Below are positions 16,247 to 46,083 of a DNA stretch of 64,000 bases, piece after piece. A model generated the notes under the pieces. The model made no database searches. It had not been told where the DNA came from and was given only the letters and a program-made list of their open reading frames with translations. The stretch lies in assembly GCF_055900595.2 (NCBI RefSeq), contig NZ_CM148325.1; one strand, 5' to 3'. A program made the translations under genes and the position numbers. Numbering within the stretch: the first letter of the stretch is position 1; every line of letters begins with the position of its first letter.

Positions 16247-17845
16247 TTAACGTAACGGCATAACGGGCGTGATATGTCCATTATGCCGGGCGGGCGGCGG
16301 TTGGCTGCCCGCCAGCCATTTGGGAAAATCACGTAGCGGCATCGGCTGTGCGTACAAATACCCTTGCAAAATATGCACGCCATGACGGCGCAAATACTTC
16401 GCCTGTTCTTGTGTTTCCACACCCTCCGCCACCAGTTCAATATTCAGTCTTTGCCCCAGTGCGATGATGATATCGGTCACCGTCGAGTTAACCGCGTCAG
16501 AACCTATAGCTGCGGTAAATGACTTATCAATTTTCAGCACGTCAGGACGTAATGTTTCAAGCCAGGAAAATGAACTGTTGCCGGTGCCGAAGTCATCAAT
16601 CGCCAGTTTGACGTTTTTACGATGCAGCTCGCGGGCAATCCGATAATCAACATCCAGTAAGGCATCGCGTTCGGTGATTTCGAGGATCAGTTGCTGAATC
16701 GGGTGAGCGCTAAACCAGTACTGATTGAGATCTTTTATCAGCACACCACGGCGAAAATGGCTGGGTGCGACGTTAATGCCAACATGAAACTGACTACTCA
16801 TTGGGAAAACATGCCGCTGACGGATGGTTTCTGCCATCACATAGCGGGTCAGTGGCACAATTAAATGATGTTCTTCCGCGATAGGAATAAACACATCCGG
16901 TGAAATCCAGCCCTGACGTGGATTGTTCCAGCGCAGCAAAATCTCTACACCAATACATTGCTGGCTGCGCGCATTAAGCAAAGGCTGGCAGAACAATTCG
17001 AACTCATGTTGCGCCAGGCCCAGATTGATTTCACGGGAAAAACTCATCCGGTAAGCGGTCGCCAGCCAGGCGATATAGCCCACAAGTAAACTTAGCAGCA
17101 CCGCCAGCGGTAATTGTGTTGGAAGATAGTGCCATGCCAGCGCCGTAGCCCCCGGACCATTAACGTTAATGGTAAAAGGAAAGCGTTGCGAAGAAACATG
17201 ATAGTTTTCATTGTCTTCAGGTTGCGGAAGGGAATCTACCAGCCCATTACCATAGAGCAAATGCCGATCGTCCACCGTCAGGCTGGCGCTACTGATTTGC
17301 GGCAGTTGTGGCTCAAGCAGCATTGCCGCCAGTAAGTCGATGTTGATCATCTCCATGACCCCAGCATTGCTACTGCCCGCTGCAGGCGTCCATTGAATCA
17401 AAACCGGACTGCCTTTAATCAGGGCATGGTCGGTCGTCAGTCGTAAAAGTGGTTGCGGTGCAGGAAGTTCAGCCAGAATGTCCACGACGGGCACATTGCG
17501 ATAACCAAAAATGCTGGAGCAATAAAGTGTGCCGTCTTGCACCAGGCCAATGGATCGCACAGTTTGGAGTTTTGCCGCCTGTTTACGTAATGGCAAATGG
17601 GCGACAGAGCAGGGCAGACCAATTAGCGGAAGTAAGACTTCACTACCTGCCTGTAGGGGAAGCAGTACTTTATCTAATTCCTCTACAGCGTGATTGGCGA
17701 ATTGTACTACCCGTTGTTGATTTAAGTTACGCTGTGAAATAAATCGCACGCTCAGGGTCGAAGCGAGCGTAACGAGTGCGCAAATCGTACAAACAATCAT
17801 TCGATTACGGCGATAGGTTTTAATGATCCGTTGTGCTTTTTGCAT
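16247..17845 (-). CDS. pdeD: c-di-GMP phosphodiesterase PdeD (YoaD), CSS sensor plus EAL domain
   Basis: Track ORF 16247..17875 trimmed to ATG at 17845 (MQKAQRIIKTYRRNRMIV...); EAL signature ELVAEGVE present. Confidence 0.85.
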   Translation of the reverse strand: MQKAQRIIKTYRRNRMIVCTICALVTLASTLSVRFISQRNLNQQRVVQFANHAVEELDKVLLPLQAGSEVLLPLIGLPCSVAHLPLRKQAAKLQTVRSIGLVQDGTLYCSSIFGYRNVPVVDILAELPAPQPLLRLTTDHALIKGSPVLIQWTPAAGSSNAGVMEMINIDLLAAMLLEPQLPQISSASLTVDDRHLLYGNGLVDSLPQPEDNENYHVSSQRFPFTINVNGPGATALAWHYLPTQLPLAVLLSLLVGYIAWLATAYRMSFSREINLGLAQHEFELFCQPLLNARSQQCIGVEILLRWNNPRQGWISPDVFIPIAEEHHLIVPLTRYVMAETIRQRHVFPMSSQFHVGINVAPSHFRRGVLIKDLNQYWFSAHPIQQLILEITERDALLDVDYRIARELHRKNVKLAIDDFGTGNSSFSWLETLRPDVLKIDKSFTAAIGSDAVNSTVTDIIIALGQRLNIELVAEGVETQEQAKYLRRHGVHILQGYLYAQPMPLRDFPKWLAGSQPPPARHNGHITPVMPLR

Positions 17846-17975
17846 GCGGGCCACCCTGTAAGCGTATGGCGACAAACGCCTGACGCAACAGTGGAAGTGT
17901 AGTGGGGAAAATTACAGCAGACGAGAAAGCAGGGATAAATTCGCCCATCCGTTGCAGATGGGCGAGGATAAAGTA

Positions 17976-19340
17976 TTAGTCACACTGGACTTTAATTGCC
18001 AGACCACCACGAGACGTTTCGCGGTACTTGGCGTTCATGTCTTTACCGGTTTCGTACATCGTTTCGATGACTTTATCCAGCGAGACGCGCGGCGCACTGG
18101 TGCGACGCAGGGCCATCCGCGCGGCGTTAATCGCCTTGACTGACGCAATGGCGTTACGTTCAATGCACGGCACCTGAACTTGCCCTGCAACAGGGTCACA
18201 GGTCAGACCGAGGTTGTGCTCCATGCCAATTTCCGCTGCCACACAAACCTGTTCCGGGCTACCGCCCAACAGCTCGGCAAGGCCCGCAGCAGCCATTGAA
18301 CAGGCAACACCCACTTCGCCCTGGCAACCGACTTCCGCACCGGAAATAGAGGCGTTCATTTTATACAGTGCACCAATCGCGCCCGCAGCCATAAAGTAAC
18401 GGGTATAGATGTCCGGGCTAACCGATTCAATAAAGTGGTCATAATAAGCCAGCACTGCCGGAACAATGCCACAAGCACCGTTGGTTGGCGCTGTTACCAC
18501 ACGACCACCGGCGGCGTTTTCTTCGTTAACTGCCAGCGCAAACATGTTTACCCAGTCAATGACATTCATCGGATCGTTAGACAGTTTATCGCTGGAAACC
18601 AGCATCCGGCGCAGGGCCGACGCACGACGCGGCACGCGCAGCGGGCCTGGCAGTACGCCTTCGGTGTTCATCCCGCGATCGATACATGCCTGCATGGTTT
18701 GCCAGACATGCGCGAAATACTCGTCGATCTCTTTCTTGCTGTGCAGCGCCAGTTCGTTCTGCATAGCGAGACCAGACAGCGAATAGCCGGTTTCATTACA
18801 GTACGCGAGCAGTTCGGTGGCAGATTTGAACGGATACGGCACGCTCACTTCGTTGGCGGCATCCTGACCAAAGTGTTCTTCATCGACGATAAAACCGCCG
18901 CCGATGGAATAATAAGTTTTGCTGTAGACGACTTCATCGCCGTTATAGGCGTGGATTTGCATACCGTTTTCATGCAGCGGCAGGTTGCCGTTATGAAAAC
19001 GCATCCCGTTGTCGCGCGGGAAATCCACTTCATGCCGTCCCTGTGCCAGCAGCAGACGTTCGCGCTCTTCTACGTCGCGAATAAAACCGGGAATACTGTC
19101 GATATCCACGGTGGCAGGTTCGTTACCTGCAAGACCCATAATAATGGCGATATCGGTGTGGTGGCCTTTACCCGTCAGCGACAGTGAACCATAAACGTCC
19201 ACGGCAACGCGAGTAACGCTATCCAGTAAGCCTTTTTCGACCAGATCATCGACGAACTGTTTACCCGCCTTCATAGGCCCTACGGTATGGGAAGATGAGG
19301 GACCAATCCCCACCTTAAACATGTCGAATAGACTAATCAC
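17976..19340 (-). CDS. sdaA: L-serine dehydratase 1 (SdaA)
   Basis: 454-aa [32 protein letters not shown]... Confidence 0.95.
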
Positions 19341-19523
19341 GATAATACTCCTGACAAGGTGACTGGACTTCCAGTAACGAACGAATAACAGCGCATAGTG
19401 TAAGAGGGAACGCGGCGACTGGCTTAACTATTCACATGAATTAAACTAATCAAAAACCGCGATTTAACTAATATTGCGATGATTGTCTCAAGTAGTGTTT
19501 TGTAGATGTAAAGATAAGTATAG

Positions 19524-20102
19524 TCAGGGTTTCACACCAATTTGCAGCGCCAGCTCACGAATTATGCCTGCGGTCATTCCCCATACAAAATACTGTTCAT
19601 ACCAGGACAGCCATACCCGATGAGAATCGCCACGGCGGTAGATATCTAAAGGGTGATAACGACCCAGATGTAATGCCTGGGCGAGCGGCATTTCAAACAC
19701 AGCGGAGACTTCATCTTCACTGGCGCGATACGGTAGATCGGGCGGGATAATGCCGACCACCGGGGTTACCTGGTAGCCAGTTACGCTATCGACGGGCGGC
19801 AGCACGCCGATAACTTCAACGGCGGAAGGCGGTATAGCGACCTCTTCTTCAGCTTCGCGCAGCGCGGCGGCGATAACGGATGTGTCCGTGTCATCGACTG
19901 CACCTCCAGGGAATGCCACTTGTCCGGCGTGTTTACGCAGATGAATCGAACGCTGAGTCAGCAACAACCCCGGTTGCGGTCGACGGACGATGGGGATTAA
20001 CACGGCAGCCTGACGATGATTTAGGGTTTCCCGGTTAATTTGCGGGCGCAAAAGTTGAAAACGCGATAAAAAATCATCAAGCGTCAGGCTACGGTATTCC
20101 AC
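19524..20102 (-). CDS. nudL: Nudix CoA pyrophosphatase NudL
   Basis: 192-aa ORF; Nudix box region [27 protein letters not shown]. Confidence 0.9.
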
Positions 20103-20104
20103 GT

Positions 20105-21466
20105 TTATTTCTCCAGTTGCTTCAGGATACGATTAACTTTATCAAAAGTTTCCTGATATTCCGCTTCTTCCTGGCTATCAGCGACAATTCCACCGCCCGC
20201 AGAGCAGTATATTTGTCCGTTAATGGCAGTCAGCGTGCGGATAGTAATGCTGGTATCCATGTTGCCGCAAAAGCTCAAATAGCCAATGCTGCCGCACCAG
20301 GCATTGCGTCGCTGCGGTTCCAGTTCGTCGATAATTTCCATAGCCCGTACTTTCGGTGCTCCAGTTATTGAGCCACCAGGAAAAGCTGCGCGCAGCAGAT
20401 CGCTGGTGTGTAACTGTTCTGGTAGTTGCGCCGTTATGGTGCTGACCAGATGATGCACGGCAGGGAAGGGTTCCACCACGAACAGCTCTGGTACTTTTAC
20501 CGAACCTGCTACGGCAACACGACCGATATCATTACGCATTAAATCGACAATCATCAGATTTTCGGCACGATCTTTCGCTGAGTTCGCCAGTTTTTCTGCT
20601 TGTTTGCTATCTTCCTGAGGATCGGGTAGGCGTGGTAGCGTGCCTTTAATCGGGCGGGTCTGGATTTCACTATTATCACAAAGAATAAACCGCTCTGGCG
20701 AAAGGCTTAAAATCGCGCCCTGTTCAAGACGTAAAAAAGCGCTAAATGGCGCGCGGTTGGCCTGATTAAGCTGAAGGAATGCCTGCCATTCATCGCCAGA
20801 ATAGGTCGCATGGAAACGCTGGGCGAGATTCACCTGATAGCAATCACCGCTGTGCAGATATTCCTGTACCTGGCGAAATTTTTCGCCGTACAGCTCGCGG
20901 GTCATATTGGATTGCCAGTCGGAAGTGAGCGTGAAATCTTCCTGCGGCGAGAATTGCTGGCTTTCCAGCCAGGCCCGACGGGCATTGACATCATTATGAC
21001 TCAGCAAAGAAACTGTTTGACGCTGGTGGTCGACAATGAGCGCCCAGTCGTAGATACCCACAGCCATATCCGGCAGAACGATATCTTGCTGCGCAATTTC
21101 TGGCAGTGACTCAAAACGGCGGCCCAGATCGTAGCCAAACAACCCCATCGCGCCGCCCTGAAATGGCAAATCTTCGTTATGCGCTGGGCGAATGTCTGCG
21201 CGATCCAGCACCTGCTGGAGCACCTGTAGCGGGTCATCAGTGGTCGTTGTGCGTTTTTCGCTTTCACTAACAACGGTTTCTTTACCGAAAGTGGTTAAAG
21301 TGCAAATCGGCTCGGCGACCACAATATCAAAGCGGCTATATGGATGATCGGCATAGCCGGAGTGTAAAAGCATCGCCCACGGCAGGTGACTTAAGCGGGA
21401 GAAATAAAATTCAGCGGCGTCCTGACGCCAGGGTAAAGTAATCACAGCGGGAGATAACGTCTTCAT
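20105..21466 (-). CDS. pabB: aminodeoxychorismate synthase component I (PabB)
   Basis: 453-aa [50 protein letters not shown]... Confidence 0.95.
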
Positions 21467-21539
21467 CAGTCCTGACTCTACTGGCTATGTGCCGGGTAGC
21501 ATGAAATAATTAGCGCCAACAATTTAGCAGGAGTTAACA

Positions 21540-21719
21540 ATGTTTGCAGGTTTACCTTCACTCACCCATGAACAGCAGCAAAAAGCCGTCGAGCGGATCC
21601 AGGAACTGATGGCACAAGGGATGAGCAGCGGCCAGGCAATCGCGTTGGTGGCAGAAGAGCTGCGTGCCAACCATTCCGGTGAGCGAATCGTGGCGCGTTT
21701 TGAGGATGAAGACGAGTAA
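21540..21719 (+). CDS. yoaH: UPF0181 small protein YoaH (59 aa)
   Basis: Translated by hand: [59 protein letters not shown]; absent from track (under 60 aa). Confidence 0.85.
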
Positions 21720-21777
21720 CACACTAATCCGTATCGCTTTCGTTATACAAGCCGATGGTTATTTGATTGTGAGAAAA

Positions 21778-21810
21778 AGGACGCTTTTCATATGTGATTA
21801 AAAGCGTCCT
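21778..21810. terminator. hairpin terminator between convergent yoaH and yoaC
   Basis: 11-bp perfect stem aggacgctttt / aaaagcgtcct; 5-A run upstream gives a U-run on the minus strand (yoaC side). Confidence 0.7.
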
Positions 21811-21838
21811 GACCCATTTATGCTGATGTAAATTTAAC

Positions 21839-22138
21839 TTAGACCAGTGCTTTTAGTTCTTCCTGCATATATGTTGAAAAGTATTCAGGATTTTTAATCA
21901 CAATGCGTTCACCAGACTCCATTTTTTTTGCCCATCCAACCATTTTTTCCGTGAACCCTGGGTTCCAGCCTTCCTGGTCAGCTCGCGCCGTAATATCAGC
22001 GGCACTCGCGGGTACTCCCAGTTCTTTCAAATATTTAAAGATTCCCTTCGCCGTGCTTTCATTCATCGAACTTGGTGTTGGCGCTGATACATCCATGGCA
22101 CCAATGAAATCCAGGGCTTTATCTATTACAGCAGGCAT
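21839..22138 (-). CDS. yoaC: DUF1889 protein YoaC
   Basis: Track ORF 21839..22198 trimmed to ATG at 22138 (MPAVIDKALDFIGAMDVSAPT...); 99 aa. Confidence 0.8.
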   Translation of the reverse strand: MPAVIDKALDFIGAMDVSAPTPSSMNESTAKGIFKYLKELGVPASAADITARADQEGWNPGFTEKMVGWAKKMESGERIVIKNPEYFSTYMQEELKALV

Positions 22139-22559
22139 ATTCTTATCCTTAAAATTAACCATGTTATCGATAAGGCTATATATGACCTTAATTTGCATCT
22201 AATATCAAAGGGATTATAACGATATGGCACGAGTTAACCTGTTGACATTCAGGTGTTTTAAAGGTAGCAGCTCATGGTGTGTTATCCAGTAAGAGGGAGA
22301 AAATTAACGGTCAGTTCTCACGCTATAACCAGATTGTTCAGCTAAGAAAGAAAACAAGAGATGCTAATCGAAGGGCGAACACAACGGCATTGTTATGTTT
22401 ATTTATATAGTTAGTTTTATAGCTAAAATTGAAATTATAAAAATAAATAATGAATTAGCAGGAGCATCAACAGTAATATCTTAATCTCTGGTCGATTTAT
22501 GTAAAACCGACCAGTATTATCGATAAATTATCGTCTGACTTATTTTGCTTCGATAAAGC

Positions 22560-22904
22560 TTACACCGCAGCCACAATCTTAATTTCAACTTTATACTTCG
22601 GGTTCATCAAACCCGCTTGTACCGTGCAGCGCACCGGCGCATGACCCGCGACAACCCAGGCATCCCACGCTTTATTCATCGCCGCGAAGTCGTTTTTATC
22701 AGCCAGGAAAATGGTGGCATCCAGAATGCTCGATTTATTGCTGCCCTGTTTTTCCAGCACGGCGTCAATCTGCGCCAGCGTGTTGGCGGTTTGCTCAAAG
22801 GCATTGGCGTCGAGGTTTTCCGGTACACCAGTGTAGTAGAGCGTGTTGTTGTGGATTACTACATCAGACCAGCGGGCTTCAGCATCGATACGAACGATAG
22901 TCAT
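22560..22904 (-). CDS. yoaB: RidA/YjgF-family protein YoaB
   Basis: Track ORF 22560..22952 trimmed to ATG at 22904 (MTIVRIDAEARWSDVVIHNNTLYYTG...); 114 aa. Confidence 0.85.
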   Translation of the reverse strand: MTIVRIDAEARWSDVVIHNNTLYYTGVPENLDANAFEQTANTLAQIDAVLEKQGSNKSSILDATIFLADKNDFAAMNKAWDAWVVAGHAPVRCTVQAGLMNPKYKVEIKIVAAV

Positions 22905-23035
22905 CATTTTGTCCTCATTATCCTTCCATTTTCGTGCTGCAAAGACTGCCACAATGTGAGGTCGCCGTCACCACTTCAACTGGCGAAAGCGCCCTCATCC
23001 TGACATAATCCCTGTTCAAATCAACAGGGGGTAGT

Positions 23036-24946: not shown

Positions 24947-25003
24947 TTTGTGATGGAGTATGGTATGATGCGCGCCTTTTTATTGATCTAAGCACGAAGA
25001 CCC

Positions 25004-25699
25004 ATGCGAATTCTGGCTATCGATACCGCGACAGAGGCCTGCTCTGTCGCCCTGTGGAACGACGGTACTGTCAACGCTCATTTTGAGCTTTGCCCTCGTG
25101 AACATACTCAACGAATCTTACCGATGGTGCAGGATATCCTGACCACCAGCGGAACTTCCCTGACGGACATAAATGCTCTGGCTTACGGGCGCGGCCCCGG
25201 TAGCTTTACCGGCGTGCGCATTGGTATTGGCATTGCGCAAGGGCTGGCGCTTGGCGCGGAATTACCGATGATTGGCGTCTCCACGCTAATGACGATGGCG
25301 CAAGGGGCGTGGCGCAAAAACCGCGCAACCCGCGTGCTGGCAGCCATTGACGCGCGAATGGGCGAAGTTTACTGGGCCGAATATCAGCGTGATGAAAATG
25401 GTATCTGGCACGGTGAAGAAACCGAAGCCGTACTCAAACCTGAACTCGTTCATGAACGGATGCAACAGCTTTCCGGCGAATGGGTGACGGTAGGGACGGG
25501 CTGGCAAGCCTGGCCGGATCTCGGTAAAGAGAGCGGTTTGGCCCTGCGCGATGGCGAAGTGTTACTGCCCGCTGCAGAAGATATGCTGCCGATTGCTTGT
25601 CAGATGTTTGCCGAGGGTAAAACGGTGGCGGTGGAACATGCCGAACCGGTTTATTTACGTAACAACGTCGCATGGAAGAAACTTCCGGGCAAAGAATGA
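25004..25699 (+). CDS. tsaB: tRNA t6A37 biosynthesis protein TsaB (YeaZ)
   Basis: 231-aa [45 protein letters not shown]... Confidence 0.95.
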
Positions 25700-25738
25700 A
25701 TCTTAAGAGTATGCCCTGAGAAAAAAAGGAGTCGCATC

Positions 25739-31637: not shown

Positions 31638-33248
31638 TCAGTTGTCGCCTTTGAATACGGTTCCAGCAGGAAGCACTGGCGCTTTTCCCGGGGCTTCAAC
31701 CGGTGTCTGCGGGAGATAATGTTCAACTTGATGAGCTGGAATGTCGGCGTAATCCTGTTTCAGCCAGCGAATAAATCCGCCGACTTTCACCAGTAAAATG
31801 GCGAGGAAGGGAAGGGCAGTGAGGACGACGGTAGTTTTCATTGTTTCCAGCGAAGCACCGGTAAACAAGATGGAAAGCGGGATCAGAGTGATCACTACGC
31901 ACCAGAACAGACGCAGCCCACGGTCAGGATCGTCACCTTCCTGGAGATTACGCGTGCTGGTCGCCGCCATGGTGTAAGCCACCGCATCCATATGCGAGGC
32001 GAGGAAGATAATCATCACGCCCAGATAGGCCGCGAGGAACAATTTACCGGCTGGTAGAGACATCAGAACTTGCTGCACAGCTGTTTCGCCGCCCAGTGTT
32101 TCCAGCACCTGTGGGACGTTGATTACGCCATTGATAAACTGATGAATGGCATAGCTTTCCATTACGCCGAAGAAGAACCAGCAACCGACGGTGCTGCCGA
32201 GGATCAGTCCCCAGATAACTTCTTTAATCTTACGACCGCGCGAAACTCGGGTGACAAACATTGCTACGCCAGGGGTGTATGAGATCCACCACAGCCAGTA
32301 GAAAACGGTCCAGTTGCGGGTAAATGAACCATCGCCAAGCGGATCGGTGAATAAGCTCATTTGCAGGAAGTTTTGCGTGGTCAGGCCGATGGCATTGATG
32401 ATGCTGTTGGTAATAAATTCGGTTGGACCGACAATCAGCACCAGTAATGGCAGCAGGAATGCGCCCCAGCCAACCATTTTGCTTAGACGTTGCAAACCGT
32501 TGTTGATACCAATCCACGAGCTTAGGCAAAAAATGCCGCCGGAAAGCAGGATCACAAATGCCTGTACGGTAAAGTTATCGGGTAAACCGGTCAGCGCGGA
32601 AAGCCCACGGGTAAAGGTTGCTGCGGTGACAACAAGGGAAATGGTCAGTGCGCCGACAGTGGCGATCAGGAACATCAAATCGACCAGTTTCCCCCACGGG
32701 CCTTGCGGGCGAACGCCGGTAATAGCAGCAATAATGCCGGAAAGGCTCAGCCCTTTATTTTTCCGCACATGAAAGTGATAAGCCATGATTAATGAGGCCA
32801 GCGTATAAGTTGCCCAGGCGCTGATGCCCCAGTGGAAGAAGGAGTAGGGAACGCTAAATTCGAGTGCCTGTTGTGAACGCGGTGCGATATTTAATCCAGG
32901 CGTTTGATAATAATAGGCCCATTCAGCAACCCCCCAATAAAGCGTAGAAGAACCTAAACCTGCACAAATAAACATAAACAGCCAGGAGAGCGTGCTGTAT
33001 TCCGGTTTTCCTTCGCCAAGACGAATATTGCCGTATTTACTGGTGGCTAAATAAATCACCAGTCCCATTGCCAGCAAAACCAATACCTGTACGGCGGAAC
33101 CTAACGTACGCGTAACAAAAGTGTATATTGCGTTGGCCGCGTCGGCCGATTGTTGTGGGAAAAGGCTTAATGCAGCTGCGATGAAAAGAATGGCCACCAG
33201 GCTGATGCTTATCAACGGCACATCTTTTTTCTTAACATTGCTCATCAT
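31638..33248 (-). CDS. yeaV: BCCT-family transporter YeaV
   Basis: 536-aa multi-TM ORF with BCCT-like N-terminus; start taken from track, true start may be internal. Confidence 0.82.
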
Positions 33249-35717: not shown

Positions 35718-36374
<657 letters not shown>

Positions 36375-36482: not shown

Positions 36483-36546
36483 CAGGCGTACCCTGAAACG
36501 GCTGAAATAAACTGTTTTCAGCACATTCATCGAAGGAGGGAAAAGG

Positions 36547-36906: not shown

Positions 36907-36909
36907 ATC

Positions 36910-37092: not shown

Positions 37093-37239
37093 TTATCACT
37101 GATCGTAGATGGCGCAATTTCTGCGCCATCGCAAAAAAATCCTCCGTGATGCTTGTCACAAATCTTGCCCTCCTGATGTTGTGCTATGCTTTTTATCAGC
37201 GACTAACCCGCTAATGCAAAACAGATAAGTGAGGAAACA

Positions 37240-37488
37240 ATGGGCATTCTGTCATGGATTATTTTTGGGCTTATTGCCGGTATTCTGGCGAAGTGGATCA
37301 TGCCAGGTAAAGATGGTGGTGGATTCTTTATGACTATCCTGCTGGGGATAGTCGGTGCCGTAGTCGGCGGATGGATCAGCACGCTGTTTGGCTTTGGTAA
37401 AGTCGATGGCTTCAATTTTGGCAGCTTCGTGGTTGCCGTTATTGGTGCGATTGTCGTGCTGTTTATCTACAGAAAGATCAAAAGTTAA
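37240..37488 (+). CDS. yeaQ: GlsB/YeaQ/YmgE-family small membrane protein YeaQ
   Basis: 82-aa ORF MGILSWIIFGLIAGILAKWIMPGKDGGGFFMTILLGIVGAVVGGW... Confidence 0.88.
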   Translation: MGILSWIIFGLIAGILAKWIMPGKDGGGFFMTILLGIVGAVVGGWISTLFGFGKVDGFNFGSFVVAVIGAIVVLFIYRKIKS

Positions 37489-37501
37489 CGCGTAAATTGC
37501 A

Positions 37502-37537
37502 CAAAGGCTGCACACAGGCAGCCTTTGCTATTTTTTA
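37502..37537 (+). terminator. intrinsic terminator downstream of yeaQ
   Basis: 10-bp stem caaaggctgc / gcagcctttg followed by a 6-T run. Confidence 0.75.
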
Positions 37538-37546
37538 GATGTGACG

Positions 37547-37621
37547 TTACCACCATCCCAACTCAGTGCCGAGAACGACAATAATCGCTACGCCCATCAT
37601 AATAATCGTTGTTTTTTTCAT
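37547..37621 (-). CDS. yoaJ: small hydrophobic protein, 24 aa (YoaJ-like)
   Basis: Translated by hand on minus strand: MKKTTIIMMGVAIIVVLGTELGWW*; name assignment yoaJ versus yoaK from memory. Confidence 0.65.
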   Translation of the reverse strand: MKKTTIIMMGVAIIVVLGTELGWW

Positions 37622-37623
37622 CT

Positions 37624-37722
37624 TTACGCTCCCGGGGCAGCATAGCCGCCAATAAAAAACCATGCTAAAAATACGACCGCTGTAATAAAGATTACAACCG
37701 GAAAAATAATACCGATTCGCAT
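37624..37722 (-). CDS. yoaK: small hydrophobic protein, 32 aa (YoaK-like)
   Basis: Translated by hand on minus strand: MRIGIIFPVVIFITAVVFLAWFFIGGYAAPGA*; stop lies 2 nt before the start of the 24-aa ORF. Confidence 0.65.
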   Translation of the reverse strand: MRIGIIFPVVIFITAVVFLAWFFIGGYAAPGA

Positions 37723-37754
37723 GTTATCACCAATCAAAAGGATGTGAATACGCC

Positions 37755-38780
37755 TCAGGAATGTAGCGCTGAATGCGCGACAAAAGGTGTTTTCTGTTTG
37801 TGTTTTTTCTCCTGATACATCGCGATATCGGCAGCATGCAGGGCGCTGTCTGCATCGGTCGTTTCAGGATCGACTTCTACTATGCCAAGACTGGCACCAG
37901 GATAATACAAATCAACATCACCTAAGTGATATTCTCCGCGTATTTGCTGTTGAATACGTTCTCGCAGCGATGGAATATCCGCATTCTCATTGTTCAGTGA
38001 AACAACCAAAAACTCATCACCGCCGAGACGACCAATAACTTCGCCATTTTGCTGGAGCGTATTAAGGCGCTCGCCAACCTGAATAAGAAACAGATCGCCA
38101 CTATTATGACCAAAACGATCATTGATTAATTTGAAGTTATCCAGATCGATAAATGCGATCATTATCTTATGGTTAAGATGCCTCGCAAGAGAAAACAGCG
38201 TCGTCAGGTTTTCAAAAATCGCCCGCCGATTCGGTAGCCCGGTTAACGAGTCGGTATACGATTGCGCAATCAGTGCGGCATTTGCTTCGCGCAGCTGTTC
38301 AACCAGCGCCTCTTTTTGAATATATTGTGCAATCAGTCCGGCGAATAGCTGTAAAACCTGTTCCGCGCGTTCACTCCACTGGCGCTTCTCACTGCTGGCG
38401 GCGCAAAGTGTGCCATAGAATGATCCATCCGGTAAGTGAATTGGCGTGCTCAGAAATGTGGTGATGCCAAGATTTCGTGCCGCAACACAGTCGCCCCAAC
38501 GGTCGGGGACTTCATCGCTGAAAAAGCAGTTTTCATCAATGGCGCGTTTGCATAACGAGTAATCCCACGAGACGGTAAAATTCTCCGGGATGTGCATTTT
38601 CTGGCTATTACGGGCAAACATTATATGCTGCAGGCGCGCTTCGACATCCACTTTGGTCAGGTAGGTTGACTCCATATCAGTGACCATTTCCAGCATCTCC
38701 AGAAGCTGTCGGACCAGACTTTCCAGTGACTGTTCTTTGGCAAGGGATTGCGAGACGCGGGCGATAATCTGATCTGACAC
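37755..38780 (-). CDS. dgcP: diguanylate cyclase DgcP (YeaP), GAF plus GGDEF
   Basis: Track ORF 37755..38909 trimmed to GTG at 38780 ((M)SDQIIARVSQSLAKEQ...); GGDEF motif RLGGDEF present; 341 aa. Confidence 0.88.
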   Translation of the reverse strand: MSDQIIARVSQSLAKEQSLESLVRQLLEMLEMVTDMESTYLTKVDVEARLQHIMFARNSQKMHIPENFTVSWDYSLCKRAIDENCFFSDEVPDRWGDCVAARNLGITTFLSTPIHLPDGSFYGTLCAASSEKRQWSERAEQVLQLFAGLIAQYIQKEALVEQLREANAALIAQSYTDSLTGLPNRRAIFENLTTLFSLARHLNHKIMIAFIDLDNFKLINDRFGHNSGDLFLIQVGERLNTLQQNGEVIGRLGGDEFLVVSLNNENADIPSLRERIQQQIRGEYHLGDVDLYYPGASLGIVEVDPETTDADSALHAADIAMYQEKKHKQKTPFVAHSALHS

Positions 38781-38962
38781 GAAACAACTCCAGGATACGG
38801 CGGGTAAATGCTGATTATTTAATCTTTGCAGGCATGATAAAACATCATCAACAAAGATGAAACAAGACGTAATATGTTTTGAGTGAATGTAATAAAAATA
38901 GTGCTGCAAAACAAAACGATACCGCGATACTCTAAGCTTGGATAAATATGTGAGATCAATAA

Positions 38963-39217
38963 ATGAAAATTATCAGTTTTGTTCTGCCTTGCTTGCTGGT
39001 CCTGGCTGGTTGTTCAACCCCTTCTCAGCCAGAAGCACCTAAACCGCCGCAGATTGGTATGGCAAATCCGGCGTCGGTCTATTGCCAGCAGAAGGGCGGG
39101 ACGCTCATTCCTGTGCAGACAGCGCAAGGGGTCAGCAACAATTGCAAATTACCGGGCGGTGAAACGATTGATGAATGGGCATTGTGGCGACGGGACCATC
39201 CGGCTGGTGAAAAATAA
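38963..39217 (+). CDS. yoaF: DUF333 lipoprotein YoaF
   Basis: 84-aa ORF with lipoprotein signal MKIISFVLPCLLVLAGCS. Confidence 0.85.
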   Translation: MKIISFVLPCLLVLAGCSTPSQPEAPKPPQIGMANPASVYCQQKGGTLIPVQTAQGVSNNCKLPGGETIDEWALWRRDHPAGEK

Positions 39218-39238
39218 CCGCCGGATGCTGCACTAAAA

Positions 39239-39586
39239 TCACAAGCTACGTAGCCAGTCTGCCAGCACCAGCGCATGGTTCTGTGTGGTGTTTTTTGCTG
39301 AGTAGAGCAGGGTCAGCGGCTGTTTTTTGGCGATGTCTGCCAGCCGCTTTCCTTCTTGCTCGTGTTGCGCCAGTTCTGCAAGATATTGCTCGCGAAAGGT
39401 TGCAAAATCGACGACTTCGCCGTGAAAGGCTTTGCGCAGCTCCGTTGACGGCGTGATTTCTTTATCCCACTCATCAAGGGCTAAATCGGTTTTTTTGATA
39501 CCGCGTGGCCAGAGGCGGTCGACCAGTACGCGATAACCATCGCTCTGTTCAGCCGGATCATAAACGCGTTTGCACTGAATATTCAT
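39239..39586 (-). CDS. yeaO: DUF488 protein YeaO
   Basis: Track ORF 39239..39607 trimmed to ATG at 39586 (MNIQCKRVYDPAEQSDGYRVLVDRLWPRG...). Confidence 0.8.
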   Translation of the reverse strand: MNIQCKRVYDPAEQSDGYRVLVDRLWPRGIKKTDLALDEWDKEITPSTELRKAFHGEVVDFATFREQYLAELAQHEQEGKRLADIAKKQPLTLLYSAKNTTQNHALVLADWLRSL

Positions 39587-39640
39587 CGTATTTGTTCTTC
39601 CTTTCACGCATGATTTGTCACGTCACTATAGCACCGGATA

Positions 39641-40822
39641 TTAGCGAATTTCTTTGTCTCTCCCGGCGCAAAGTCCGAAAATCGCCATCAGTAGTGAAAG
39701 TATTGCAACACCCATCAGTGGTACGGACCAGTCACCGTTAGCATCGTGTATTTTACCCATCAGCGGCGGCCCACAGGCTGCCAGCAAATACCCGACGGAT
39801 TGTGCCATCCCCGAGAGTGCTGCCGCCTGATGCGCAGAACTTGCCCGAAGACCAATGAACGTCAACCCCAGTATCATTGTTGCGCCGGAACCAAAACCGA
39901 AAAGCAGAGTCCAGGTGATCGCGTGTGCTGGCATAAAGCAGAGCCCAACCGCGCCCACTGCGCACATCAAGGCAACGAACGCTGCAATACCACGCTGATC
40001 TTTCACATGATGTAAGAAAAGTGGGATCAGCAAACCGGGAGCTGCTGTGGCTAGTTGCAGCAAACCATGCAGTGAACCCGCCTGTGCTTCGCTATAGCCG
40101 TGACTGATGAGGATCGCCGGAAGCCAGCCAATAATCACGTAATAGACGAGTGAGTTGATCCCAAGAAACAATGTTACCTGCCAGGCAAGCGGCGAACGCC
40201 AGATACCCCGAGTATGTAAGGCGCGTGAGGTACTCAAATTTGCATGTTGTTGACTTCGCCACTGTGGCAGCCATAAAAAAAGAGCCAGCAGAGGAAAACA
40301 CATCAGCATGAGCAACGCGCCTTGCCAGCCAAAACCGTTCAAAGCCAGCGGCACGACCATAGCCGATCCCAGTGCCGCCGCAGCTCCCATTGTCAGGGAA
40401 TATGCGCCGGTAAGTCTGGCGACGGAATGAGGGAAATCGCGTTTAATTAATCCTGGCAGTAAGACATTGCCTAATGCAATCCCACCGCCAATGACCGCTG
40501 TACCGCCAAATAATAAGTAAGGCGAAGGGAGAGAGCGAATTGCGATACCTGCACAGATCAAAAGTAACGCGGCAAACAGGCTACGTTCCATACCAAAACG
40601 TCGCGCCACCGGGGCGGCAAGAGGTGAGATTAGCGCAAAGGCCAATAATGGCAGGGTGGTTAATAAGCCGGTTTGCGCCGTCGTTAGCGAGTAAGCGGAA
40701 CGAATCGTATCCAGTAACGGTGCTGCGCCGGTAAAGGTGACGCGTAATGTTGTGGCAATCATCAGAATGCCAGCGATAAGGACAATCCTGTTTTTGCCGC
40801 TTAATGAAGTTGAACAGGCCAT
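39641..40822 (-). CDS. nimT: MFS transporter NimT (YeaN)
   Basis: 393-aa multi-TM ORF MACSTSLSGKNRIVLIAGILMIATTLRVTFTGAAPLL... Confidence 0.88.
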   Translation of the reverse strand: MACSTSLSGKNRIVLIAGILMIATTLRVTFTGAAPLLDTIRSAYSLTTAQTGLLTTLPLLAFALISPLAAPVARRFGMERSLFAALLLICAGIAIRSLPSPYLLFGGTAVIGGGIALGNVLLPGLIKRDFPHSVARLTGAYSLTMGAAAALGSAMVVPLALNGFGWQGALLMLMCFPLLALFLWLPQWRSQQHANLSTSRALHTRGIWRSPLAWQVTLFLGINSLVYYVIIGWLPAILISHGYSEAQAGSLHGLLQLATAAPGLLIPLFLHHVKDQRGIAAFVALMCAVGAVGLCFMPAHAITWTLLFGFGSGATMILGLTFIGLRASSAHQAAALSGMAQSVGYLLAACGPPLMGKIHDANGDWSVPLMGVAILSLLMAIFGLCAGRDKEIR

Positions 40823-40918
40823 ATGTTTCTCATTGATACAAACGAGGCTGTACCTTACCGTTTTTATTGTTATGTTGAATCAAGTTAAAATGACAAATTA
40901 TCGCTAAATTCGGACAAA

Positions 40919-41740
40919 ATGATGCACAGGTTGAATCTCAATGGTTATGAACCCGACCGACACCATGAAGCCGCGGTCGCATTTTGTATTCACGCCGGAA
41001 CGGATGAGTTAACCAGTCCTGTACATCAGCACCGCAAAGGGCAGCTGATACTGGCGCTACATGGTGCAATTACCTGTACGGTGGAAAATGCTTTGTGGAT
41101 GGTGCCGCCACAATATGCGGTTTGGATACCGGGCGGGGTGAAACATAGCAATCAAGTGACAGCTAACGCTGAACTCTGTTTTCTGTTTATAGAGCCCAGC
41201 GCAGTGACAATGCCGACAACATGTTGCACATTGAAAATATCGCCCTTATGCCGGGAATTAATTTTAACCCTGGCAAACAGGACGACGACTCAGCGTGCTG
41301 AGCCGATGACCCGCAGATTAATTCAGGTCCTGTTTGATGAACTCCCTCAGCAGCCACAACAACAGCTGCACCTGCCCGTTTCTTCTCATCCTAAAATCCG
41401 CACGATGGTGGAGATGATGGCGAAAGAGCCTGTCGAGTGGGGGGCATTGGGGCAATGGGCTCGCTTTTTTGCGATGAGTGAACGCAATCTTGCCCGACTG
41501 ATAGTGAAAGAGACGGGGTTGAGTTTTCGCCAGTGGCGTCAGCAGTTACAGCTGATTATGGCGCTTCAGGGATTAGTGAAAGGCGATACTGTACAGAAAG
41601 TTGCTCATACGCTGGGGTATGATTCAACAACGGCCTTTATTACTATGTTTAAGAAAGGCCTGGGGCAAACGCCAGGCCGATATATTGCGGGATTAACTAC
41701 TGTTTCCCCACAATCAGCGAAACCAGACCCGCGGCAATAA
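40919..41740 (+). CDS. nimR: AraC-family regulator NimR (YeaM)
   Basis: 273-aa ORF, cupin-like N-terminus and AraC HTH C-terminus; divergent from nimT. Confidence 0.88.
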
Positions 41741-42143
41741 GCGGGCCAACCGGTACGCCGCGAAACAGCGCCACGCCCAAAACAGTGCCCACCAGCAGCC
41801 CGGCGACCAGTTGCGGCTGGCTGCCCATTAACGTCACGCCGCGCCCACCTAGCCAGGAGACAATAACGCCTACTGCAATTGCCACCAGCGATTTCCAGTT
41901 CAGAAACGAGTGAATCAGGGTTGAGGGCGGTAGCGTCCCGCTGGCGATGGGGGCCATAACGCCAATCGTCAGAATGATTATCCCGATACTTAGCCCCTGT
42001 TTTTCAATCCACGGGAAAAAGGTGCTTAACGGTGTGACGCGGACAATGATTAACACCAGAATTGAAACGGCGACAGTGGTGTTATGACTGATAAAGCCCA
42101 GCGCAGCTAACCCGAGCAGGATCAGCAAAGTGACATCAAACAT
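41697..42143 (-). CDS. yeaL: DUF441 membrane protein YeaL
   Basis: 148-aa [39 protein letters not shown]... Confidence 0.85.
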
Positions 42144-42312
42144 CGTGGTTTCCTTGCCAAAAAATAATAAGCCTGCTTACTTTACGCTTGCTGCAGGAAG
42201 GAAGTAGAAAATCTTTACGTTTTTTGCATAAAAAATCAGGCGAACTGTCATCAAACTGCCATTTGTGCACGCTAACAATAACGTGAAAACAGCTATCTCC
42301 CCGGGGCATACT

Positions 42313-42417
42313 ATGAACGATCAAATGTTTGTCGAGACACTGATTATCACGTCATCGTTTTTTGCCATTGCTGTTGTGCTGGTTTTGTCCGTTCTGCTTA
42401 TTGAACGGACAGGCTAG
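42313..42417 (+). CDS. yoaI: small membrane protein YoaI (34 aa)
   Basis: Translated by hand: [34 protein letters not shown]; absent from track (under 60 aa). Confidence 0.75.
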
Positions 42418-42921
42418 TTACGCAGTGCGGCGGAAATTGACCAGTTCTGGTTGCGCAATGCGCAAATAATCCGCGGTTTTCAAAATAACGGATTTATCCA
42501 GCATGCCTGCATTGAAGGCGATTTCATCAAATCGTTCGAAGAGTAGGGGGTCGGCAACCAGTTTGAGTTTTGGATGGAAGCTGAAAGGGGGGATCGCGCC
42601 GAAGACACAGCCTGTGAGTTCATCGACTTCCGCCGGGCTGGCCAACGAAGCGCGTAATCCGCCTATATGGATGGCAAGTTGGCTCAGATCGGCCTGTTGA
42701 TCGGCAGCGAGGATCGCCAGAACATGTTGATTTACGCCATTGCCTTTGACTTTACATACCAGTGCCTTAGCCCCCTGGCCTAAAGCGGTGCCACGAATTT
42801 CTGACACCGCTTCGCATTTACCTACCGCCTCATGGGTAACGACGCGGAAGTCAGCACCTTCTTGTGATAATAAAGCGATTAACCGCTGATGCGTCACGCT
42901 TCCTTTAGCCATTTCAGTCAT
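42418..42921 (-). CDS. yeaK: YbaK/ProX-family aminoacyl-tRNA deacylase YeaK
   Basis: 167-aa ORF MTEMAKGSVTHQRLIALLSQEGADFRVVTHEAVGKCEAVSEIRG... Confidence 0.88.
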   Translation of the reverse strand: MTEMAKGSVTHQRLIALLSQEGADFRVVTHEAVGKCEAVSEIRGTALGQGAKALVCKVKGNGVNQHVLAILAADQQADLSQLAIHIGGLRASLASPAEVDELTGCVFGAIPPFSFHPKLKLVADPLLFERFDEIAFNAGMLDKSVILKTADYLRIAQPELVNFRRTA

Positions 42922-42963
42922 TTCACGCTCCTGAGATTACAAGCAAACAACCACAGAAGATTA

Positions 42964-44454
42964 TCATGAACGGCTGTTTTTGTTCTGCTTATTGACATAT
43001 AAACGCTCATCGGAAGCTTTATACGCATCATGTAACGTATCGTTTTCTTTCATCGCATAAATACCGGAAGAGAAGCCGATCTCTTTCTGCGGCGCGATAT
43101 GTTGCAGACGTTTTTCGATACGTTCAGGCAGTTGTGCTGCAATTTGCGGCGTCGAATCGACAAGAATGATGCAGAATTCATCGCCACCGAGTCGGATGGC
43201 ATAATCACTTTTACGAATCGACTGTTTAATCGCCTGAGCTAATAACGTAATCGCTAAATCTCCTTCCTGATGACCGAGCGTGTCATTTATTTGCTTTAAC
43301 TTGTCCATGTCAATTGCAATAAACATCACCGAAGAACCAGATTGCACCAGTTTTTGCAACCGCTGCTCCAGTTCAGGGGTTAATATTTTGCGATTATACA
43401 GTCCGGTCATCGCATCACTAATATTTTCTCGCGACACATTTTGGTATAAACGGAAGTGCATCCGCACCATATTCAGCAAAATTAACGCCGTCAAAATCCA
43501 GAACAGAACGCTTTTCCACGAAGATGTGATAAAGTAAAGAATATCAATGGATAACGATACACGAATGCCGCCCGGTAAGTCATGGACGTAACTGACATAC
43601 TGGAACAGATTATCTTCGCTCTGGTTGATGATAATGTCGCGCCCAGAATCTGTATCGGTTAGCGTGACATTGAGAAAACGCCAGAGGAGAGGGCGGTCAT
43701 GCGTGTAAAAGATATTCCGCAGATTGTTTTTGTTAATATCCAGCAGCACAATTCCTTTTAGCTGCCCTGCAACATACACTGGCGTCAGCAAACTCATCAC
43801 GTTCTGTTTAGTACGCTGATCCTGGTAAATGCTCGATAATACGGTGCGACCGGTAAAAACTTTTTCAATATCTTTGCGATCGATGCCAATGCTTCCTGAC
43901 TGCAGGAAGGACCAGTTATTCATCGCAAAGTACTCAACATTAACCGGCTCATAAAAATAGACATAGAGGTCATTGAGATCGAGATAATAGTGAAATTTCT
44001 CTTCGGCCATTCCAAGACCTGAACCATAATCATCCTGGTGGCGGTTGCCTTCCACTGCCTGATCAAAAGCGGGTAATAGTGCTGCAGCTTCCACAATTGT
44101 GTCGCATTCAGTGGATGCGGTTTGTAGTGTACCGTGTAAGCCCGTGTACTTATGGGCAGTCAGGTTTAAGCCATGGGTATTATTGGCAGACTCAAAAGCC
44201 TCGCAGATGGTACGCCGCTGTTCTGGCGACACTTCCGACTGCTCAGCAGCGAGAGCGCGCATCACATGCGCGGCAATACTCTGATTTTGATACTTGTCAT
44301 AAAGAAAGGAGGAATCTGCTCTCTGCACGATATAGCGCAGATAGGCACTCATTGCTCTGTCGCTGGCGACAAGTTCAAAAATAAGGAAGGAAGATGTCAG
44401 CACAATGACACTTGCGGCGATAAAATGCCGGAGCATTCTATGGTGCAATTTCAT
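42964..44454 (-). CDS. dgcJ: diguanylate cyclase DgcJ (YeaJ), membrane sensor plus GGDEF
   Basis: Track ORF 42964..44634 trimmed to ATG at 44454 (MKLHHRMLRHFIAASVIVLTSSF...); GGDEF motif RLGGDEF; 496 aa. Confidence 0.88.
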   Translation of the reverse strand: MKLHHRMLRHFIAASVIVLTSSFLIFELVASDRAMSAYLRYIVQRADSSFLYDKYQNQSIAAHVMRALAAEQSEVSPEQRRTICEAFESANNTHGLNLTAHKYTGLHGTLQTASTECDTIVEAAALLPAFDQAVEGNRHQDDYGSGLGMAEEKFHYYLDLNDLYVYFYEPVNVEYFAMNNWSFLQSGSIGIDRKDIEKVFTGRTVLSSIYQDQRTKQNVMSLLTPVYVAGQLKGIVLLDINKNNLRNIFYTHDRPLLWRFLNVTLTDTDSGRDIIINQSEDNLFQYVSYVHDLPGGIRVSLSIDILYFITSSWKSVLFWILTALILLNMVRMHFRLYQNVSRENISDAMTGLYNRKILTPELEQRLQKLVQSGSSVMFIAIDMDKLKQINDTLGHQEGDLAITLLAQAIKQSIRKSDYAIRLGGDEFCIILVDSTPQIAAQLPERIEKRLQHIAPQKEIGFSSGIYAMKENDTLHDAYKASDERLYVNKQNKNSRS

Positions 44455-44634
44455 GATAAATGGCACTCCTTCGGTTAGTGAAACGAGAAAACCAGATAAA
44501 GTTCGATTGCGGCCTGGCACAGGGGCGCTAATTATACTCATCTCTGCGCCGCTGGGGAGGGGAAATTTAGGGGTAATAGTAATAAATTGTATGCAAAAGC
44601 CACGCAAAAAGCATGGCTCTGAATATTTTTGCAC

Positions 44635-46083
44635 TTAAATATGATGAATAATCACTTTGTTGCCCCCCTCGCTTTTCGCTTCGCGTAAGGCTTTATCTGC
44701 TTCCGTCATGACAAGCGAGATATTACGCGTGTCACCCGTTGAAAAAACCGTGCCAATACTGATGGTCATTTGTTCAGGAACATCATATCTGTTACTAAAA
44801 CCGGTCAGGAGTTCGACATTTTTACGCATACGTTCCGCAATGATTTTTGCCTGGGCACTATTGAGTTCGGTAAATAGCAAGCCAAACACCTCACCCTCCA
44901 GTCGCGCTAAAATATCATCGGGGCGGATGCTTTGCTGGATAATATCGACAATTGAAACCAGCACTTTATCACCCACACGATGTCCCCATTGGGCATTGAT
45001 GCGCTTGAACTGATTAATATCAACCAGCATGACACAAAAGTCCTTAACAACAGGTCGCGACAATAATGACTCTACGCTGTTGAAAAAGTAGCGCCGATTA
45101 TAAATATTGGTCAGTACATCATGAACTGCCAGTTTGCTGGAGAGTTGCAGTTCCTGAAAAATGTTATAAATCAGAAAAGACACAACAAACAGTTTACTGG
45201 AAACTTCAATCCCGCGACTGATATACCAGATGGTGTAATTATACTCATCCAGAGTCAGTAGAAGTAAGTTGCAGCATAGCGATGCCAGACATAATAATGC
45301 TATTAACGGCCATAGTTCGCTGGCTAATCGTGTACGCATGATAATAAAGAACAGTAAAAATGCCCACAGACAAACCAATATTTTTGTATAGTTGATTCCC
45401 CAGGTCGCAGTATGGTTGTCCGGACAGTAATCGACGACATACAAAGAATAGTCAGCGTTATAACTGCTCAGATTGTGTGCCAGAAGGGGAAATACTAAAA
45501 AAGGGATCAGCGTCAGTAACAGGATCCCCGTTTTTTTCTTATTGTTGTTAAGAATGTTGTCTTTACCATAACAAAAGAGCGCCAGCGAGGTTAAACAAAT
45601 AAAACTGAGTTGGCGGAAAATATAGAAAATAGAAACATCATTCGACTTTGTCTGGATCAGTGTACTGCCGTTGATTGGTTTATGGATAATTACAATGGTT
45701 TCAACTAAATAGATAAGGCCACTTAAAAATGCAAGGCTTAAAATGAGTGTTGGTAAAATTTGTTTGTTAGTGAAATATTTCATCAACATGAAAAGAAAAA
45801 TGACGGCGTTAAGGAAGAACAAAGCCACAACAACCATCAGGTAATTCATCTGTGGAATGAGTTTTACATTCGTGTTTTCGTTATATAAGGTGGTGATGCA
45901 AAATAAAATTAACGTCAGCAATAAGCTGAAAATAAAAAAGCCTTGAGCTTTTAATTTTTGTGTACCCATAGAAACCATAAAAAGGAGAGCAATGTGAGTG
46001 CTGGATTTTATTGATGGCAGAGATATATGGTTTTGACCAAGATCAATTTTCGGTAACGATGCAAAATAATTAAAGAATAACAC
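44635..46083 (-). CDS. cdgI: GGDEF-domain membrane protein CdgI (YeaI)
   Basis: 482-aa track ORF from GTG; multi-TM N-terminal region and C-terminal GGDEF-like domain (RLEGEVFG); strongly AT-rich; true start uncertain. Confidence 0.8.
   Translation of the reverse strand: MLFFNYFASLPKIDLGQNHISLPSIKSSTHIALLFMVSMGTQKLKAQGFFIFSLLLTLILFCITTLYNENTNVKLIPQMNYLMVVVALFFLNAVIFLFMLMKYFTNKQILPTLILSLAFLSGLIYLVETIVIIHKPINGSTLIQTKSNDVSIFYIFRQLSFICLTSLALFCYGKDNILNNNKKKTGILLLTLIPFLVFPLLAHNLSSYNADYSLYVVDYCPDNHTATWGINYTKILVCLWAFLLFFIIMRTRLASELWPLIALLCLASLCCNLLLLTLDEYNYTIWYISRGIEVSSKLFVVSFLIYNIFQELQLSSKLAVHDVLTNIYNRRYFFNSVESLLSRPVVKDFCVMLVDINQFKRINAQWGHRVGDKVLVSIVDIIQQSIRPDDILARLEGEVFGLLFTELNSAQAKIIAERMRKNVELLTGFSNRYDVPEQMTISIGTVFSTGDTRNISLVMTEADKALREAKSEGGNKVIIHHI

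Follow-up and report, generated by a model that had tools for sequence, protein, structure and literature searches.

A stretch of 64,000 nucleotides of the Escherichia coli chromosome (NCBI RefSeq assembly GCF_055900595.2, contig NZ_CM148325.1; the whole stretch is called the window here) was analyzed for its genes of cyclic di-GMP (c-di-GMP) metabolism. An earlier note on this DNA had drawn attention to the interval 16,247 to 46,083, where pdeD, dgcP, dgcJ and cdgI lie within 30 kb. The interval is in all likelihood ordinary, already described E. coli core chromosome that holds four of the 29 GGDEF/EAL genes, and these are independent genes and not one system. By their residues, the products are three predicted turnover enzymes (PdeD, DgcP and DgcJ) and one receptor-like c-di-GMP-binding protein (CdgI). 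The four genes, the types of their domains and the degenerate state of CdgI have all been published, and the proximity of the genes defines no new system. Identity, domain content, motif state, synteny and selection were established in the present analysis; biochemical activity, regulation and partners are taken from the literature.

Domains and catalytic motifs of the four proteins

All four genes are present in the window, and all are on the minus strand:

16247..17845, minus strand: pdeD (yoaD), predicted 532-amino-acid (aa) membrane c-di-GMP phosphodiesterase, with a first transmembrane segment, a periplasmic CSS domain, a second transmembrane segment and an EAL domain
37755..38780, minus strand: dgcP (yeaP), predicted 341-aa cytoplasmic GAF-GGDEF diguanylate cyclase, GTG start
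42964..44454, minus strand: dgcJ (yeaJ), predicted 496-aa membrane diguanylate cyclase, with a transmembrane segment, a periplasmic GAPES1 sensor, a transmembrane segment and a GGDEF domain
44635..45978, minus strand: cdgI (yeaI), 447-aa multi-pass membrane protein with MASE4 and a degenerate GGDEF domain

The places, gene identities and domain types given in the earlier note, and its view that this is known biology, were correct: Pfam E-values for the domains lie between 1e-40 and 1e-148, and the four proteins are 98-99% identical to those of K-12. No further GGDEF or EAL domain was found in the 64 kb by tBLASTn and a profile search of all six-frame open reading frames (ORFs), no c-di-GMP riboswitch was found there with Rfam, and the annotation of the rest of the window contains nothing else related to c-di-GMP. 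The motifs by which the proteins were assessed are as follows:

17513..17611, minus strand: conserved periplasmic cysteines of the PdeD CSS domain (C79 and the C109-S-S motif), read from the sequence
16358..16945, minus strand: PdeD catalytic signatures E301-I-L-L-R, N358, E389-I-T-E (ExxE), D417-D-F-G-T-G, K438, E474-G-V-E and Q494, all intact by alignment
38010..38147, minus strand: DgcP active site D212-L-D...N220-D and G253-G-D-E-F (aa 253-257), intact
43174..43311, minus strand: DgcJ active site D382-M-D...N390-D, I-site R414-K-S-D (aa 414-417) and G423-G-D-E-F (aa 423-427), all intact
44884..45021, minus strand: CdgI degenerate catalytic pocket (D320-I-N, N328-A and E361-G-E-V-F) with the I-site R352-P-D-D (aa 352-355) retained, by alignments

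The earlier note had counted four turnover genes and had named the absence of catalytic motifs as what would overturn this. The motifs are intact in PdeD, DgcP and DgcJ, whereas that of CdgI is degenerate (EGEVF, DIN and NA), and for this gene the count does not hold.

PdeD shares 526 of 532 residues with K-12 PdeD, contains an EAL domain (PF00563, 2.7e-58, covering 233 of 236 profile positions) and a CSS-motif domain (PF12792, 3e-42), and has hydrophobic segments at aa 15-37 and 241-265. Its signatures agree column by column with the active PA3825-EAL and YahA/PdeL structures, and Spurbeck et al. 2012 give an identical residue string in their Table 1 (PMC3484386). Two periplasmic cysteines are the defining feature of CSS-domain phosphodiesterases, of which PdeD is one of five (PMC5897775). 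The layout of the PdeC type, with a periplasmic loop of about 200 aa between two transmembrane segments and two cysteines, one of them in the CSS motif, is found in PdeD. PdeD is therefore predicted to be an intact CSS-domain EAL phosphodiesterase, an activity still annotated as 'putative' in K-12. A heterologous phosphodiesterase complemented a yoaD mutant (PMC3484386). PdeD is induced in stationary phase (PMC5635695), and the authors of that study tie the induction to earlier-reported RpoS control of its gene.

DgcP is identical to the K-12 protein at 337 of 341 positions and matches GGDEF (PF00990, 1e-40) and GAF_2 (8e-11). No hydrophobic segment was found in DgcP. The I-site was defined as an RxxD that occupies positions -9 to -6 and stands five residues ahead of the A-site; DgcP lacks it and has QNGE at that position. 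The protein appears to be an intact diguanylate cyclase with a cytoplasmic GAF sensor. DgcP is expressed vegetatively (PMC5635695), and expression of its Shigella flexneri orthologue raises c-di-GMP, slowly (PMC11327459).

For DgcJ, 490 of 496 residues are identical to K-12, the Pfam matches are GAPES1 (1e-148) and GGDEF (PF00990, 3.2e-40), and the NCBIfam equivalog NF040885 scores 743.5 bits against a cutoff of 500. Hydrophobic segments span aa 7-32 and 308-334. These features identify DgcJ as a presumably intact diguanylate cyclase with a periplasmic GAPES1 sensor and an I-site. DgcJ binds the glycosyltransferase NfrB, whose gene lies elsewhere and which produces the receptor polysaccharide of phage N4; DgcJ provides local c-di-GMP and is needed for infection by phage N4, and its GGAAF mutant loses the activity needed for infection (PMC8669469). 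Two observations on dgcJ in other assemblies may be recorded here. The gene is split across two contigs in Escherichia sp. MOD1-EC7003 and E. albertii NBRC 107761, where an insertion element may lie within it. A 429-nt contig of the Firmicutes species Terrisporobacter mayombei (locus L021, about 1x coverage) encodes DgcJ residues 147-289 with 99% identity, and almost certainly stems from contamination of that assembly with E. coli.

CdgI matches MASE4 (5.6e-49) and GGDEF (PF00990, 7.6e-45), has about seven hydrophobic segments, and is identical to K-12 at 444 of 447 residues after the conserved start; its gene has a GC content of 39% versus 49% for the window. Residues 361-365 (EGEVF) align to the GGEEF of solved active cyclases and of DgcT. 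In comparison with these proteins, DID is changed to DIN, ND to NA and GGEEF to EGEVF, the last by replacement of the first glycine and the fourth-position glutamate (E361 and V364). The residue strings found here in the GGDEF domains agree with those that Spurbeck et al. 2012 list in their Table 1 (PMC3484386). Sarenko et al. 2017 described the A-site of CdgI as degenerate and its I-site as intact, and reported that the protein binds c-di-GMP and is non-enzymatic; it was undetectable under laboratory conditions, is silent and repressed by CsrA, interacts with several other GGDEF domains and may titrate them (PMC5635695). SrsR activates cdgI (PMC9181523). The degenerate motif and this literature together identify CdgI as a c-di-GMP binder that is very probably not a turnover enzyme.

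Two other views of CdgI were weighed. It is highly unlikely that CdgI still works as a diguanylate cyclase despite EGEVF, in which case the phrase 'four turnover genes' would be literally right. YeaI is grouped with 'verified' cyclases, and the heterologous cyclase WspR complemented the yeaI biofilm defect in no-salt lysogeny broth, but WspR failed to complement the yeaI defect in glycerol medium (PMC3484386). The fold and most substrate-binding residues are retained and the gene is under purifying selection; however, the losses extend beyond the two A-site residues replaced by E361 and V364 to the second Asp of DxD and to the Asp of ND, and the protein is classed as degenerate with c-di-GMP binding shown (PMC5635695). 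The degenerate motif is moreover conserved, as E/DGEVF, at the loci of all Escherichia species, as expected for a receptor. That cdgI is a pseudogene in decay, the silenced remnant of a horizontal acquisition and without function, is extremely improbable. Its degenerate active site and low GC would fit decay, as would a protein undetectable in the laboratory (PMC5635695), deletion in S. flexneri (PMC11327459) and a change of the I-site Arg to His in one Escherichia species. Against this, all six Escherichia sequences keep the 447-codon frame intact, and the ratio of nonsynonymous to synonymous substitution rates (dN/dS) across Escherichia is 0.04-0.11 for cdgI at dS up to 0.67 (dgcJ, 0.03-0.05; dgcP, 0.04-0.06; yeaH, 0.004-0.011). 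The shared E/DGEVF, the intact frame and the low dN/dS together indicate that catalysis was lost early and that cdgI has been maintained, and thus disfavor a pseudogene. Furthermore, 5390 of 5426 complete E. coli genomes carry at least 80% of the cdgI-dgcJ segment, CdgI binds c-di-GMP and interacts with other GGDEF domains (PMC5635695), and the gene is regulated by SrsR (PMC9181523). The species with the altered I-site is Escherichia sp. MOD1-EC7003 (locus L024), whose CdgI reads HPDD at this site and NT at the ND position.

The start of cdgI was also examined. The longest ORF reaches 46083, which is the end coordinate of the interval in the earlier note. K-12 annotates CdgI as 491 aa, versus 447 aa in the model of the NCBI Prokaryotic Genome Annotation Pipeline; the difference is the following segment:

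45979..46110, minus strand: 44 codons annotated in K-12 as the CdgI N-terminus; start not conserved

In the window the K-12 ATG falls out of frame, and the first ten codons of the K-12 model correspond to unrelated sequence without an ATG. In another Escherichia genome (locus L004), two in-frame stops lie at and just after the position of this ATG, and in a third (locus L006) the ATG is TTG. The Met at 45978 is the only one conserved throughout the six Escherichia sequences. Residues that differ from K-12 number 5 of 34 upstream of Met-45 versus 3 of 447 downstream, and the Met-1 of DgcT aligns to residue 4 of the short form. The K-12 start thus looks to be annotated 44 codons too far upstream, conservation supporting the 447-aa model, and 45979..46110 is probably the 5' untranslated leader of cdgI.

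Transcription units and origin of the proximity

The four genes belong to four separate transcription units and have different sensors, and their published regulation and partners differ. About 20 kb and 19 annotated genes lie between pdeD and dgcP (sdaA through fadD, rnd, yeaVWX, dmlRA, leuE to yoaJ and yoaK), and 4.2 kb and 7 genes on both strands lie between dgcP and dgcJ. With these 19 and 7 unrelated genes between members, and with members that are not co-inherited, neither a c-di-GMP operon nor a functional cluster was recognized. Only cdgI and dgcJ are adjacent; they are on the same strand with a 180-nt spacer that contains the following element:

44591..44617, minus strand: 18 nt after the cdgI stop, a hairpin with a 7-bp core and a 5-nt loop, then UUUUGCAU

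The RNA fold of this hairpin has an energy of -19.1 kcal/mol (z = -3.75 versus shuffles), and the hairpin probably acts as an intrinsic terminator that separates cdgI from dgcJ. A tandem duplication of cdgI and dgcJ was rejected on account of an identity of 28%, in the GGDEF domain only, and of unrelated sensor domains. The hairpin and this low, GGDEF-only identity indicate that the two genes are neither an obvious operon nor a recent tandem duplication. A scan of 44300-46400 for consensus promoters and terminators gave counts no higher than those of shuffles and did not list the spacer hairpin; it was not used as evidence. An ORF at 42964-44634, which runs from just after the cdgI stop into dgcJ, was dismissed as an accident of open frame on account of the spacer hairpin with its T-run and the conserved dgcJ ATG at 44454. 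Downstream of dgcP, two further genes were located by annotation and exact mapping:

37547..37722, minus strand: yoaK and yoaJ, very small genes for membrane proteins, in the orientation of dgcP and 32 nt downstream of it

From this spacing, yoaK and yoaJ are probably co-transcribed with dgcP.

To compare the locus between species, one genome per species was scanned for DgcJ relatives, which gave 23 loci, and the window proteins were compared by tBLASTn. The synteny comparison was centered on dgcJ with flanks that cover dgcJ, cdgI and dgcP; for pdeD, synteny is known within E. coli. The backbone yeaG-yeaH-dgcJ-yeaK-...-yeaO-yoaF-dgcP-yeaQ is common to Escherichia, Citrobacter, Klebsiella and Kluyvera, across which identity ranges from 97% down to 45% for DgcJ and from 99% down to 54% for DgcP. 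Among the loci examined, dgcP is present in Escherichia, Klebsiella, Kluyvera and one Citrobacter locus (L011); it was absent where the region was covered in Salmonella enterica subsp. arizonae, Citrobacter sedlakii and two C. amalonaticus loci. Among the 23 loci, cdgI is found in Escherichia species only, and the junction between yeaH and dgcJ differs by genus:

Escherichia: cdgI
Most Citrobacter: empty, about 140 nt (e.g., L009 9859-10001)
Klebsiella: family-9 glycosyltransferase gene (L016:8485-9642)
Kluyvera georgiana: LysR regulator and LysE-type exporter (L025:8200-9825)

S. flexneri lacks cdgI and has a truncated dgcJ and an intact dgcP (PMC11327459), and these differing losses indicate that the members have independent fates. 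Kluyvera carries an extra intact GGDEF gene of 507 aa with an SGGDEF motif (L023:18271-19794, minus strand; also L017 and L026). It lies just beyond dgcP on the opposite strand, its N-terminal domain has no Pfam match, and it is absent from the other sampled genera. No GGDEF or EAL domain was found in the other lineage-specific ORFs of the neighborhood.

A sequence of events can be proposed from these comparisons. The dgcJ and dgcP genes would be an old pair on the yeaG-yeaH-dgcJ-yeaK...yoaF-dgcP backbone, and cdgI would be a later insertion, in Escherichia only, at a junction with different cargo in other genera. A low-GC DgcT paralogue, cdgI would have lost catalysis early and would since then have been kept by purifying selection, and pdeD would simply lie about 20 kb away. 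The proximity of the four genes then probably reflects historical contingency in a chromosome sector generally rich in GGDEF/EAL genes.

Local density and its interpretation

The earlier note described the four genes as interspersed with stress and stationary-phase genes. This is true of yeaQ (37240-37488), which lies inside the interval, whereas yeaH-yeaG (46256-49586) flank it and yobF-cspC (8681-9046) lies 7 kb outside. The note also called the local density notable. Null models were simulated with 29 GGDEF/EAL genes (PMC5635695), a chromosome of 4,641,652 bp and the K-12 span of 29,641 bp. Four of 29 independent genes fell within the span with P = 0.02; with the three known adjacent pairs each treated as one unit, three units fell within it with P = 0.24. 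When terminus-side enrichment was introduced, with gene positions taken from b-numbers, P was 0.09 for 29 genes and 0.48 with merged pairs. By this list of b-numbers, 17 of the 29 genes lie within 26% of the chromosome (post hoc binomial 2e-4). By the same list the four genes of the window, which span 30 b-numbers, are the tightest four-gene group in K-12, and the runner-up is pdeO-dgcO-dgcF-dgcZ, at 46. A literature search on chromosomal clustering of E. coli GGDEF/EAL genes found nothing relevant. The density is real but only weakly beyond chance, and not compelling; it is statistically marginal, and nothing points to a functional unit.

Several points speak against the reading of four independent genes on ordinary core chromosome. 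The value under independent placement is nominally significant, the group is the tightest of its size in K-12 by b-numbers, and the refined nulls rest on gene positions taken from b-numbers. A third GGDEF gene near dgcJ and dgcP is found independently in two genera (cdgI in Escherichia and the 507-aa gene in Kluyvera), and GGDEF genes are 2 of about 12-15 lineage-specific families there, more than expected from a genomic frequency of about 0.5% and a hint of non-random accretion. Finally, YeaI is counted as a cyclase of 'verified' activity, which conflicts with the degenerate motif of the protein (PMC3484386).

An alternative is a selected 'c-di-GMP island' beside the stationary-phase yeaGH operon, in which the placing of cyclases, a phosphodiesterase and a receptor side by side would be favored (e.g., by a shared chromosomal domain, copy-number timing near the terminus or shared silencing) and GGDEF genes would accumulate. 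We consider this improbable. The naive P value of 0.02 fits it, as do the third GGDEF genes present independently in Escherichia and Kluyvera within about 10 kb of the ancestral dgcJ/dgcP pair, the lack of GGDEF or EAL in the other lineage-specific ORFs there, and the concentration of 17 of 29 genes in 26% of the chromosome, which is post hoc and depends on b-numbers. However, P rises to 0.09-0.48 under realistic nulls, and the genes form four transcription units with many unrelated genes between them. Published regulation is gene-specific, the DgcJ partner NfrB is encoded elsewhere, and members have been lost independently in Salmonella, Citrobacter and Shigella. The argument from accretion is itself post hoc, rests on two events and does not tell gain from loss. 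A related proposal is that the yeaH-leuE neighborhood is a recurrent landing site of GGDEF genes in Enterobacteriaceae, selected for terminus-side co-placement (e.g., by shared silencing or replication-linked dosage), with cdgI gained in Escherichia and the 507-aa gene in Kluyvera in addition to the ancestral dgcJ/dgcP pair. This is unlikely, though marginally less so than the island; if true, the density would have arisen by selection and would be no accident.

The results are of modest use in three respects. They provide comparative evidence against the K-12 start of cdgI. They indicate that the catalytically dead CdgI, which is specific to Escherichia, probably arose long ago from a DgcT-like cyclase and has been maintained by selection, which supports a role as receptor or titrator over a pseudogene. 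They also hint, weakly, at an accumulation of GGDEF genes here in more than one genus. Beyond correct bookkeeping, the finding matters little.

Lineage, neighboring features and known systems

The window corresponds to the K-12 region 1.86-1.90 Mb in reversed orientation, as judged by its annotated best match, strain Z0117EC0005, and the K-12 reference. This best match is a dog isolate from Korea; it differs by scattered single-nucleotide polymorphisms and one 1-bp indel, and coordinates left of about 11.7 kb are shifted by one base. The lineage is an outlying one in E. coli: of 5426 complete genomes, only 8 reach 99% identity over the region, and all remaining genomes, including K-12, O157 and LF82, across the familiar phylogroups, are about 97% identical. 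A 20-kb probe from the interval matched 5425 of the 5426 genomes, and was contiguous over at least 80% of its length in only 4369. One E. coli match to this probe extends over 29 kb and contains a 'replication endonuclease' gene, an indication that strains with an interrupted match carry a prophage in the 20-kb region.

Other features of the window were recorded. In the window, pncA is directly followed by yeaC (about 54.0-54.6 kb), whereas K-12 has ydjK and ydjL directly upstream of yeaC; the ydj sugar-utilization gene cluster appears to be absent from this lineage. Between sppA and ansA lie an IS200/IS605 transposase gene (about 57718-58176) and a SIMPL-domain gene (about 56756-57466). An Rfam match to STnc490 (57585-57708, 146 bits) directly adjoins the transposase gene and probably belongs to the insertion sequence. 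A Mn2+ (yybP-ykoY) riboswitch upstream of mntP (10715-10811, minus strand) scores 39.1 bits, below the Rfam gathering score of 45, and is missed by a default scan. An inverted repeat at about 10935-11017 gives spurious microRNA-precursor matches on both strands. The closest strain's RefSeq record labels the cold-shock gene adjoining yobF (8837-9046, plus strand) cspE. In sequence and position the gene agrees with CspC, and the cspE label looks like a naming inconsistency of automatic annotation. The Rfam cspA thermoregulator model spans the yobF-cspC transcript (8662-9121). The yeaV gene (31638-33248, minus strand) encodes 536 aa here versus 481 aa in K-12; the choice of start or the N-terminus differs between the annotations.

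The closest known counterpart of the interval is that of K-12 MG1655, in which pdeD (b1815), dgcP (b1794), dgcJ (b1786) and cdgI (b1785) have the identical order, neighbors and spacing (29.6 kb in K-12 and 29.7 kb here), and every catalytic or degenerate motif in the four proteins is unchanged. K-12 differs by about 3% nucleotide divergence and by its annotated cdgI start codon, which is absent from the window. CdgI is a full-length paralogue (38% identity over 447 aa) of DgcT (YcdT), an active MASE4-GGDEF cyclase next to the pga operon. The two have the MASE4 and GGDEF architecture and the RPDD I-site in common, but DgcT keeps DID, ND and GGEEF where CdgI has DIN, NA and EGEVF, and it is encoded at a different locus. 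PdeD shares its layout of transmembrane segment, periplasmic domain with two cysteines, transmembrane segment and EAL domain with the phosphodiesterases of the PdeC/PdeB type; control by DsbA/DsbB redox state and processing by DegP/DegQ have been demonstrated for PdeC and PdeB, whereas for PdeD they are only inferred (PMC5897775). A further comparison is offered by the dosC and dosP genes of E. coli.

The products of dosC and dosP act as one cyclase/phosphodiesterase complex. These genes, also named dgcO and pdeO, are adjacent c-di-GMP genes that are co-transcribed as an operon (PMC5635695), and the genes of the window resemble them in proximity only.

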